Shown: piece by piece, positions 4,605-12,784 of the stretch
Layout: each line of letters starts with the position of its first letter
Numbering within the stretch: position 1 is the first letter of the stretch
Assembly: GCA_001778695.1 (NCBI GenBank)
Contig: MFHU01000003.1
Coordinates: 75,112 to 139,111, forward strand
Origin: Candidatus Giovannonibacteria bacterium RIFCSPHIGHO2_12_FULL_44_22
GTDB lineage: Bacteria > Patescibacteriota > Minisyncoccia > UBA11713 > 2-01-FULL-45-33
Reading direction: 5' to 3'
DNA: 64,000 nucleotides
Position numbers and translations under genes: made by a program
Notes under the pieces: generated by a model
What the model saw: only the letters and a program-made list of their open reading frames with translations
Told to the model about the DNA's origin: nothing
Database searches by the model: none

Positions 4605-6828
<2,224 letters not shown>

Positions 6829-11203: not shown

Positions 11204-12076
11204 TTATACGCCTATCTTCCATATTTCTTTTTCAAGAAATGCTTCGATAGTTTGGCGCGTCGCTTTATTAATGAGATTTGAATGTGATAATTTATTTTCT
11301 TTTGCGTACTCGGCAAGTGTAATAATTTTCTTACCTTCCAAATACGCCAGCCTTTTGTGGTAACTATTAGTAAGCGACTTAGCTACAATTTCTTCCATAA
11401 TCTCTGTTTTACTTTTTGTGTCGAATTCCTTGAACGCATCATAATATTTTTTCCGGTCAATGAATTTTATGTTGATCGGCGCATATCCCTCACGAATTAA
11501 AAGATAATTATTGATCACTCGCCCAATGCGTCCATTACCATCTACAAACGGGTGCGTGTATTCAAAGGCAAGATGTAGCCCAGCAATTCGTTTAATAATA
11601 TTTTCTTGACTGCTCGCATGATATTCTGCAAGCATTTTTTCAAGTCGCCCCGCCACTTCTTCCGGCTTTGGCGCGATATGGCTTCCCACTCTCACATATT
11701 CTCCCGACGCACGAAACCTTCCGGCAACATCATCACGAATATTTGAGATAAGCATTTTATGGAGAGATAAAATAACATCAAGCGTTAATTCTTGTTCTTT
11801 GGCTCGCTTCTCTATATATGACACCACTCTAGCCAGATTTTTTGCTTCAAAAATTTCTCGCTCACTGATAAACCTGTCTAGGTCAATTTGGAGCAGTATT
11901 TTTTCAGTTTCTTCAAGAGTAAGCGTGCTATTTTCAATAGCGTTGGAGTTATAAACTTGTTCAGCAATTTCCGCTTCGCTCACAAGCTTAATAAGCGCCT
12001 CTTTGCCGGTAGACGCTTTATAGTATCTTTCACGCAGTGAGTGTATTTTATTAAAAACGCTTAATACTTTAGCCAT
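11204..12076 (-). CDS. Fic-family protein (AMPylase type) with an intramolecular inhibitory motif
   Basis: Fic motif HPFVDGNGRIGR. N-terminal SNAIEN matches the (S/T)xxxE(G/N) inhibitory helix. Confidence 0.8.
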   Translation of the reverse strand: MAKVLSVFNKIHSLRERYYKASTGKEALIKLVSEAEIAEQVYNSNAIENSTLTLEETEKILLQIDLDRFISEREIFEAKNLARVVSYIEKRAKEQELTLDVILSLHKMLISNIRDDVAGRFRASGEYVRVGSHIAPKPEEVAGRLEKMLAEYHASSQENIIKRIAGLHLAFEYTHPFVDGNGRIGRVINNYLLIREGYAPINIKFIDRKKYYDAFKEFDTKSKTEIMEEIVAKSLTNSYHKRLAYLEGKKIITLAEYAKENKLSHSNLINKATRQTIEAFLEKEIWKIGV

Positions 12077-12156: not shown

Positions 12157-12333
12157 TTAGCTATAATTTCCCCAAAAACGTCTTATTGAGAACCGTTTTT
12201 TAATCTGCTCTAAATCATCAAGATACTTTAAGAACAAAATCCAAGAAGTTTGCTCAATATAATCAAGCTCTGTGGCGCACCCAGCATCGCGATGCAAAAT
12301 ATCGTCTATATTCCGAAATGCTTGCTCAAACAT
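12157..12333 (-). pseudogene. 58-aa remnant of the N-terminal domain of a type I restriction-modification / N6-adenine methyltransferase (HsdM_N)
   Basis: Manual translation: MFEQAFRNIDDILHRDAGCATELDYIEQTSWILFLKYLDDLEQ..., which fits the HsdM N-terminal pattern (LR...EY...LLFLKYL.D), followed by an early stop. It is below the ORF-track length cutoff. Confidence 0.5.
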
Positions 12334-12455: not shown

Positions 12456-12540
12456 ATCATTTTCCAAGCCGATCGGTCTTCCGATAAAAAGTGTTTCGGG
12501 CGCGGGCGATGGGATTTGAACCCACGATCTCCTCTCATGA

Positions 12541-12656
12541 CCCCGCACCAAAAATTTCCAGCGGGCCCGAAGGGATTTGAACCCTCGATCTTCCCCGTGA
12601 CAGGGGGACGTGTTGCCAGGCTACACCACGGGCCCATATTTAATTTTGGTGCGGGG
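12541..12656. repeat. 13-bp perfect inverted repeats (CCCCGCACCAAAA and TTTTGGTGCGGGG) bracketing tRNA-Asp with 8-nt spacers on each side
   Basis: Read directly. The left arm is 12541-12553 and the right arm is 12644-12656. Confidence 0.85.
12562..12635 (-). tRNA. tRNA-Asp (GUC)
   Basis: GGGCCCG-TG-GTGT-AGCCTGGCA-ACAC-G-TCCCC-CTGTCAC-GGGGA-AGATC-GAGGG-TTCAAAT-CCCTT-CGGGCCC-G. Confidence 0.85.
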
Positions 12657-12712
12657 CGGGCAGGGAGGCGTGTTAACCAGGCTACACCACGCCCGCATAA
12701 TTTTTTAGCCAA

Positions 12713-12784
12713 TGGCTGCAGCAGGGATCGAACCTGCGACCTAGGGCTTATGAGTCCCTCGCTCTACCACTGAGCTATGCAGCC
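12713..12784 (-). tRNA. tRNA with CAU anticodon (Met or Ile2 type)
   Basis: GGCTGCA-TA-GCTC-AGTGGTA-GAGC-G-AGGGA-CTCATAA-GCCCT-AGGTC-GCAGG-TTCGATC-CCTGC-TGCAGCC-A. G1-C72 is paired. Confidence 0.8.

Follow-up and report, generated by a model that had tools for sequence, protein, structure and literature searches.

Nested tRNA genes in Candidatus Giovannonibacteria: a resident tRNA-Asp probably displaced by a palindromic cassette that carries its replacement

The 64,000-nucleotide stretch of Candidatus Giovannonibacteria DNA analyzed here (the whole of it is called the window below) carries, on its minus strand at 12696-12501, one tRNA-Asp gene inside another. The best explanation, with a probability of roughly three in four, is that the resident tRNA-Asp gene was inactivated by a palindrome-bounded DNA cassette carrying a replacement tRNA-Asp, with the outer halves left behind as a split pseudogene. 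An earlier note on this DNA had described a split tRNA gene with an inverted-repeat insert that holds an intact tRNA-Asp, and this anatomy is confirmed by direct reading of the sequence, with ARAGORN and Rfam finding the inner tRNA-Asp. Among the explanations offered there, a decayed tRNA-Asp hit by a tiny tRNA-carrying palindrome comes closest to the one preferred here, but the disrupted gene is judged to be the resident orthologue and not a paralogue, and the event is not a one-off.

Anatomy of the nested locus

All of the parts listed in the earlier note are present at 12696-12501. They are given here in order along the minus strand, followed by the neighboring tRNA gene. The disrupted outer gene is called the shell and the inner tRNA the cargo.

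12661..12696, minus strand: 5' half of the shell, the resident tRNA-Asp, with acceptor strand GCGGGCG, the D arm, and CCTCC, running to C32-U33-G34 and ending in CCTCCCTG
12657..12660, minus strand: CCCG junction motif, of the form CNNG, 4 nt, at the border between exon and arm (read from the sequence)
12644..12656, minus strand: left palindrome arm CCCCGCACCAAAA, 13 bp, an exact match to the arm motif that pairs perfectly with 12541-12553
12636-12643, minus strand: AT-rich spacer of 8 nt between the left arm and the inner tRNA
12562..12635, minus strand: intact inner (cargo) tRNA-Asp(GUC) with a G73 discriminator and no encoded CCA (ARAGORN; Rfam RF00005, 64.2 bits)
12554-12561, minus strand: AT-rich spacer of 8 nt between the inner tRNA and the right arm
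12541..12553, minus strand: right palindrome arm TTTTGGTGCGGGG, the perfect 13-bp complement of the left arm
12501..12540, minus strand: 3' half of the shell, TCATGAGAGGAGATC, with the T arm, acceptor strand CGCCCGC, and discriminator G
12713..12784, minus strand: tRNA-Met(CAU), upstream, the first gene of a conserved tRNA-Met/tRNA-Asp pair (ARAGORN, Rfam)

The insert is ~120 nt long, 74 nt of which are tRNA, and it separates G34 from U35 of the outer gene. The outer acceptor strands pair at all seven positions (GCGGGCG with CGCCCGC). The shell 3' half runs from TCATGAGAGG through the AGATC variable loop and the T arm to CGCCCGC and the final G, and its TCAT-GA-GAGG stretch is where the end of the loop and the 3' anticodon-stem strand are damaged. 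The inner tRNA-Asp folds as a cloverleaf, and its RF00005 match spans the full-length model. Inverted repeats flanking tRNA genes are usually 5-8 nt (103 tRNAs from the window and 80 related loci); the inverted-repeat score is 14 matches for the window locus and 12-14 for other nested cases. The 206-nt region as a whole has a good predicted fold (z = -4.0) in which the two arms pair. Within the window, the exact arm motif is found only at the nested locus and in a palindrome inside ligA (5152-5178).

The syntenic comparison proposed in the earlier note turns up uninterrupted tRNA-Asp genes in relatives such as L015 (Giovannonibacteria RIFOXYD1_FULL_48_21). In many relatives tRNA-Met is followed by a single uninterrupted tRNA-Asp, and this pair is conserved without the insert; the tRNA-Asp site is filled in the window and empty in L015 and others. 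From its sequence and this conserved setting, the outer gene is best regarded as the resident orthologue of the tRNA-Met/tRNA-Asp operon. The inner tRNA-Asp, with acceptor GGGCCCG, represents another allele and is most similar to the resident tRNA-Asp of L005, L013, and L002.

The shell has the marks of a pseudogene: it is damaged when compared with an intact orthologue, and tRNA models do not recognize it. ARAGORN and Rfam recognize only the inner tRNA-Asp and the adjacent tRNA-Met. The shell 5' half matches the intact L015 tRNA-Asp without a mismatch over positions 1-36 (100% identity), and when the two halves are joined (G34|U35), 74 of 75 aligned positions match, with one additional inserted base. 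The lesions, C38T and the extra A, both fall in the loop end and 3' anticodon-stem strand, which bears out the earlier remark on the imperfect pairing of this strand; past them, starting with the variable loop, the shell is identical to L015. Virtual excision over a 13 x 13 grid of cut points (169 excisions) never restores tRNA-Asp(GTC) for the window, and the tRNA-Gly(GCC) calls that it did yield are an accident of the CCCG motif. With default intron settings ARAGORN reports the inner gene only. Forced to accept an intron of 100-140 nt, it returns a poorly paired tRNA-Met(CAT), which is judged spurious. With only two lesions in its shell, the window insertion may be recent, and the case for a dead shell rests largely on the family-wide evidence given in the next section.

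The window encodes bacterial LigA, GatA, PheS, GyrB, and NusG, and the closest relatives of its PheS come from Candidatus Giovannonibacteria and other Parcubacteria metagenome-assembled genomes (60-78% identity). A promoter and terminator scan of the minus strand called nothing convincing. Two features that the scan did not call can be read in the sequence, a long hairpin with a T run at ~12453-12411 and a TATAAT box at 12794-12789. On the downstream side, a 58-codon open reading frame (ORF) at 12160-12333 on the minus strand ends in stops just upstream of a Fic-domain gene (11204-12076). Judged without a domain search, this ORF resembles the N terminus of the type I restriction-modification subunit HsdM (MFEQAFRNIDDILHRDAGCATELDYIEQTSWILFLKYLDDLEQ...). 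It appears to be what is left of a gene, a hint of gene flux on this side of the tRNA locus.

A family of palindromic cassettes

Looking for further copies of the arms, as the earlier note had suggested, proved productive. A metagenome scan with the pattern CCCCRCACCAAA-N75-105-TTTGGTGYGGGG finds at least 118 loci with at least 120 elements; the fixed arms and the 75-105-nt spacing bias this sample to tRNA-sized cargo and hide diverged arms, such as those of the tRNA-Met cassettes L053, L018, and L026 described below. Among the matches listed, 46 elements hold a tRNA (39 distinct sequences, or 40 distinct cassettes counting the window), and ten cargo specificities are represented among them: Pro, Met, Val, Glu, Arg, Ala, Asp, Gln, Leu, and Ile. 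The family is found in tRNA genes, RNase P RNA, ORFs, and intergenic arrays, and in both orientations relative to the tRNA. Contigs that clearly come from Patescibacteria include L116, with a GyrB 70% identical to that of the window, and L183 and L197, with GatA at 54-55%. A viral contig collection gave no match to the two-arm pattern.

Cargo and shell have the same identity and orientation in the nested cases. In 28 of the 40 distinct tRNA cassettes, the flanks are a better match to the cargo they enclose than to any cargo of another type, and flank/cargo alignment places the insertions in the D, anticodon, or T loop. Excision restores a tRNA of the same type for 15 of the 40 distinct tRNA-carrying cassettes and for none of the 72 distinct cassettes without a tRNA, where restoration as called by ARAGORN is a lenient test that accepts some abnormal T loops. 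When the flanks of at least 120 elements are tabulated, TTCA/TTTA is enriched before one end, and CNNG, the usual flank family-wide, follows the other. The CNNG motif of the window is CCCG, and CCCG or CCTG is also found at the tRNA-Asp junctions of L018, L105, and L152.

Those three loci show what has become of other nested tRNA-Asp genes. In L018 an identical 21-nt junction, CCTCCCTG|CCCGCCCCGCACC, lies upstream of another intact tRNA-Asp, and the shell is badly decayed. L105 and L152 have the same arms at the same 34/35 site, and L105 also shares the TCATGA junction of the window. The shell of L152 has an acceptor and a 31-nt 3' half identical to the cargo of the window, and a further outer remnant is also present. 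The cargo type of one genome is thus the shell of another, and replacement is serial.

The tRNA-Met gene has been affected in a similar Russian-doll arrangement at the following loci.

L053, 850-1330: nested tRNA-Met locus
L018, 470-800: nested tRNA-Met locus
L026, 1840-2130: nested tRNA-Met locus
L116, 3300-3480: nested tRNA-Met locus

In L053, L018, and L026, which are PheS-linked loci, an intact tRNA-Met lies between complementary arms inside a disrupted tRNA-Met-like gene. A third, outermost shell is found in L053 and L018 as a 5' half only, such that the nests are up to three deep, and the Met-like shells also carry hairpin inserts of 50-110 nt in the D loop. The arms of these loci differ between genomes yet stay complementary, and the junction always reads ACU|TTCA-arm ... 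arm-CA(A/T)G|TAA. The shell 5' half in L116 is that of the resident tRNA-Met of L005, with the T arm and the 3' acceptor strand deleted and the anticodon CA replaced by TTCA-cassette-CAAG; this tRNA-Met site is filled in L116 and empty in L005.

Further signs of decay come from other shells. Shells hit in the T loop read stem-CNNG-cassette-TGAA-ATT-stem, and T54-Ψ55 is missing at any choice of boundary. Near-identical contig pairs suited to comparing shell and cargo divergence are mostly identical throughout, leaving the tRNA-Pro loci L113 and L192 as the one informative pair. Their cargo is identical at 72 of 72 positions and their cassettes at 107 of 109, while many substitutions and several additional, unrelated hairpin inserts set their shells apart. 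These inserts, e.g., CCCCAGTAGC...GCTACGGGG followed by TGAA, lie in the D and T loops and after the anticodon stem. Either loops are strongly preferred targets or such extra inserts are tolerated. Across the family, shells decay while cargo tRNAs stay intact.

The palindrome has also reached sites that have nothing to do with tRNA.

5149..5181, plus strand: empty palindrome ACCCCCACACCAAAA-G-TTTTGGTGTGGGGGT in ligA (4816-6828), a 33-nt in-frame insertion with borders good to about ±2 nt
L089 4554-4657 and L107 357-460: family element in a full-length class A RNase P RNA gene, with arms and ~78 nt of cargo extending a hairpin

The earlier note had linked the repeat to a palindrome inside ligA, and the link holds, as the arm motif is the same. 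The 11 residues encoded by the ligA insertion immediately precede the KxDG adenylation motif. Solved LigA structures lack the insertion, as does every close aligned homologue, P0001-P0005 at 75-82% identity among them (P0007 is a fragmentary, uninformative row of the alignment), which marks it as a recent in-frame DNA insertion. Given how close it lies to the active-site lysine, the inserted loop must be tolerated. In the RNase P RNA genes the conserved AGGAAAGUCC follows shortly after the element, which, judged from the flanking AGGAAAGTCC, appears to sit at the P3 hairpin; this position should tolerate extension. In L104 an element lies in frame within an ORF of ~800 codons. With many copies, conserved inverted arms, and unrelated contexts, and with filled and empty sites to compare at tRNA-Asp, tRNA-Met, and ligA, the palindrome evidently moves at the DNA level.

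Several other arrangements were seen near these elements. Dense arrays of short palindromic units (CCCCGCACCAAAT, GGGGATCCCCTCACCAAG, and similar) that resemble REP clusters are found in L084, L093, L099, L101, L110, L121, and L128. In L082 (11297-11508), L096 (1305-1532), L137 (3231-3462), and L187 (1355-1586), a hairpin whose cargo is not a tRNA is found at a distance of 25-50 nt from an intact tRNA; tRNA-like fragments flank the hairpin in L082, L096, and L137 and resemble the type of the neighboring tRNA in L082 and L096. These four loci may be rearranged or partly deleted nests. Parcubacteria tRNA-Asp genes directly flanked by inverted repeats of 11-14 nt are found in L041 (5385-5490), L076 (1130-1235), and L047 (400-540). 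Their repeats are unrelated to the arms (L041, AAACATGTCGTCT / AGACGACATGTT; L076, similar; L047, TTGTTCTTTGGAAAT / ATTTCCAAAGAGCAA) and they have no obvious shell; they may belong to other cassette families or to older events.

Explanations for the nests

Under the preferred explanation, a cassette that brings a replacement tRNA into the resident gene, the inner tRNA-Asp would be functional and co-transcribed with tRNA-Met from the resident operon. It would be released by RNase P and ordinary 3' processing, and the shell fragments would be discarded. The 13-bp helix between leader and trailer may help in this processing, or it may simply be the arms of the element. In a single-copy tRNA gene only insertions that bring a replacement would survive, and the same-tRNA rule would exist because selection keeps only these. 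How the cassette enters could be explained in three ways. It might transpose as a single strand through recognition of the hairpin, in the manner of REP/RAYT or IS200/IS605, beside TTCA-like loop sequences. An allele that already holds the cassette might spread by homologous recombination through the highly conserved tRNA flanks. Finally, break repair might copy an intact allele into the hairpin tip of a palindrome-hit gene. TTCA-like sequences of the D and T loops have been hit repeatedly, which suggests a hairpin- or loop-specific single-strand mechanism.

Several observations fit poorly with a mobile cassette inside a dead gene. The shell exons of L152 are perfect (CTG|...|TCAC GGAGA), and the acceptor stem has stayed perfectly complementary in L192, L053b, and L026b despite several inserts. 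The extra hairpins of the shells lie in loops and not in stems, as tolerated or excised inserts would. Shell and cargo are nearly identical in L091 and L130, which a purely horizontal cassette does not predict. The TTCA/CNNG junction motifs are part element and part exon, replacing exon bases, and neither the at least 120 flanks nor the filled and empty sites show a consistent target-site duplication or a fixed element end. The 57 larger ORFs of the window, which were judged by their N-terminal sequences, a few Pfam tags, and homology from other searches, include no candidate transposase, nuclease, or RAYT-like protein, as assessed without a domain search. In addition, the copy number of the inner tRNA-Asp is known from the 64-kb window only.

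An alternative that keeps the palindrome and drops the mobile cargo is doubtful. In this account an empty palindrome first enters the tRNA gene, and a break at the hairpin tip is then repaired by copying an intact tRNA allele. The donor could be the sister chromosome or DNA taken up by the cell, with microhomology at the A/T runs of the arm ends priming the copying. Such rescue in place would explain why cargo and shell always agree in identity and orientation, and it would fit the near-identical pairs in L091 and L130. It is also consistent with cargo lying exactly at the palindrome center, with very short AT-rich spacers and arms that end in A and T runs, and with the existence of empty family palindromes that move. 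However, the cargo of the window is of the GGGCCCG type and its shell of the GCGGGCG type, and the cargo matches resident or shell genes of other lineages. L113 and L192 share one cassette within diverged shells. Copying from the same locus was also considered, and the spacers inside the arms have no convincing similarity to the sequence that flanks the shell. Furthermore, a cell whose essential single-copy tRNA gene had taken an empty hit would need to stay alive until the repair.

It is improbable that the outer gene is still functional and that the insert is removed at the RNA level, either as a protein-dependent intron or by trimming of the halves, which would then be ligated or work as a two-piece tRNA. 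For this, RNase P and RNase Z would free the inner tRNA while the 13-bp helix and the acceptor stem clamp the halves together, an arrangement that also has little probability. The fully paired outer acceptor and intact T and D arms of the window speak for this reading, as does the fold of the 206-nt region with its arms paired. The perfect exons of L152, the confinement of shell inserts to loops, the complementarity kept in L192, L053b, and L026b, and the Met-cassette arms that differ but stay complementary point the same way. Set against this, joining the exons of the window leaves one A too many in the anticodon stem and never yields a tRNA-Asp call, the shells hit in the T loop lack T54-Ψ55 at any boundary, and several shells have no 3' half. 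There is no bulge-helix-bulge motif, as the step from the anticodon stem to the 13-bp helix leaves 7x5 nt unpaired in the window and 7x4 nt in L152. Several pairing registers tried by hand for these two loci gave no 3-4-3 arrangement that places the junctions in bulges. Elements occur in both orientations relative to the tRNA, so a junction motif at the RNA level would not be conserved. Splicing would also make tRNA cargo unneeded, and empty or non-tRNA hairpins would then be expected in tRNA genes, but none of the 72 tRNA-less hairpins lies in a restorable one. The same palindrome is retained in frame in ligA. Bacteria are not known to have a tRNA-splicing endonuclease, and nothing like a splicing endonuclease or RNA ligase stands out among the 57 larger ORFs of the window, which cover 64 kb and were inspected without a domain search. 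The split tRNA of the Nanoarchaeum kind raised in the earlier note is thus not supported, given the missing bulge-helix-bulge, the damage in the joined exons, related shells that are truncated or without essential T-loop bases, and the absence of tRNA-less examples.

A degenerate group I intron of the kind found in Patescibacteria tRNA-Asp and tRNA-Asn genes, or the remnant of an attachment site for an integrase-encoding element, is very improbable. Integrases do commonly target anticodon and T loops. With the boundary moved by one base to 33/34, U becomes the last base of the 5' exon and G the last of the insert (…CCU|GCCCG…GGGG|UCAU read as …CCU|G…GGG|GUCAU), which is trivial without a ribozyme core. 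Group I introns are known at 35/36 in the anticodon loop of Patescibacteria tRNA-Asp (PMC13011429). However, the inserts of the window, L018, and L053 match no Rfam family other than tRNA at gathering thresholds or at E <= 10, RF00028 included, and 74 nt of the ~120-nt insert are tRNA. The long intron suggested in the earlier note is not supported, given the lack of a group I core, the lack of a bulge-helix-bulge, and the damage in the joined exons. For an integrase, a directly repeated tRNA segment (attL/attR) is missing and the insert has inverted arms instead, and the occurrence of the family in protein-coding genes and RNase P RNA speaks against both readings.

The chance that the locus is a chimera assembled from two similar tRNA-Asp genes is negligible: the two do share stretches such as GTGGTGTAGCCTGG, and the L011 contig breaks inside the shell 5' half, but GCA_001778615.1 (MFHN01000005.1) and ERZ28563557, independent assemblies of different samples, have exactly the same nested locus (24 contigs encoding the adjacent protein were read for this check), which rules against mis-assembly, and the same architecture is found with different tRNAs in well over 40 unrelated contigs. 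L011 (LCKG01000001.1) is the nearest relative here, with 79% nucleotide identity over 741 nt, and its contig end falls 16 nt into the same outer tRNA-Asp 5' half (L011 1-103). A nested duplicate that breaks assembly would explain this contig end, and such loci may be under-reported in metagenome-assembled genomes.

Relation to known elements and significance

The window cassette is rated as a small palindromic mobile element of a familiar sort, with nested same-tRNA cargo as the new twist; full-text literature searches found no description of same-tRNA nested tRNA genes or of this arm sequence. Rickettsia palindromic elements (RPE), REP/BIME with RAYT, Correia/NEMIS, and ERIC are short, multi-copy, non-autonomous palindromes with conserved arms. 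Like RPE and REP, the family described here varies in presence among close relatives, inserts in frame into genes (ligA, L104), and hits RNA genes (RNase P RNA). It differs in that the hairpin loop holds a complete tRNA gene and in that the element sits in the loops of a gene for the same tRNA, disrupting and replacing it at once. The arm CCCCRCACCAAA and the TTCA/CNNG junctions are found in place of the GTAG/CGTC tags of known REPs, and, unlike in REP/RAYT systems, no RAYT-like gene is seen among the window ORFs as inspected by N-terminal sequence.

Other systems resemble the nests in only some respects. Archaeal split, tri-split, and multi-intron tRNAs with a bulge-helix-bulge are known from Nanoarchaeum, Caldivirga, and Thermoproteales. 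They share with the nests the separation in the anticodon loop, a GC-rich helix (13 bp here) that joins the halves, and inserts in the D, anticodon, and T loops. Unlike them, the nests are found in a bacterial host with the halves adjacent in cis, no bulge-helix-bulge, and exons that are damaged or truncated. The outer copy is also dispensable in the nests, as the insert brings another complete copy of that tRNA. Phages and genomic islands that use tRNA genes are kilobases long, encode an integrase, restore only the displaced 3' segment, a copy of which they carry, and leave a direct repeat. As with these, insertion into a tRNA gene is tolerated since a replacement is brought along, and anticodon and T loops are preferred; the difference lies in a unit of ~120 bp without any gene for its own movement, a whole tRNA between inverted arms, and the nested split shell left behind. 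Pack-MULEs and filler-DNA MITEs are eukaryotic elements that carry gene fragments. They likewise hold host gene sequence between conserved terminal inverted repeats, but the cargo here is a whole tRNA gene, nested in the gene it replaces.

The closest case by host and site is that of group I introns at 35/36 of tRNA-Asp and tRNA-Asn in Patescibacteria (PMC13011429). They occur in the same phylum, gene, and loop, and there too the host gene is missed by standard finders. The window insert differs in having no ribozyme core by Rfam, a length of ~120 nt that is mostly tRNA, a position at 34/35, and exons that do not rejoin intact.

These loci matter in practice, as they break contigs (L011) and their shells go uncalled by ARAGORN and Rfam, which makes them a problem for annotation. 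They also bear on the debate over split tRNAs, as tRNA genes that look split or intron-containing can arise late by insertion. If removal at the RNA level were true after all, protein-dependent tRNA splicing or a split-tRNA system would be seen in bacteria for the first time, with the conserved arm as the recognition site of an RNA-processing enzyme. Under the preferred explanation of a replacement-bearing cassette, the nests represent a novel way for tRNA genes to turn over in very small genomes: a single-copy resident gene is overwritten from inside, sometimes repeatedly. The conserved arm CCCCRCACCAAA, the loop-specific insertion, and the same-tRNA rule suggest an insertion or recombination system in bacteria of the candidate phyla radiation, one that might serve as a small site-specific insertion tool.

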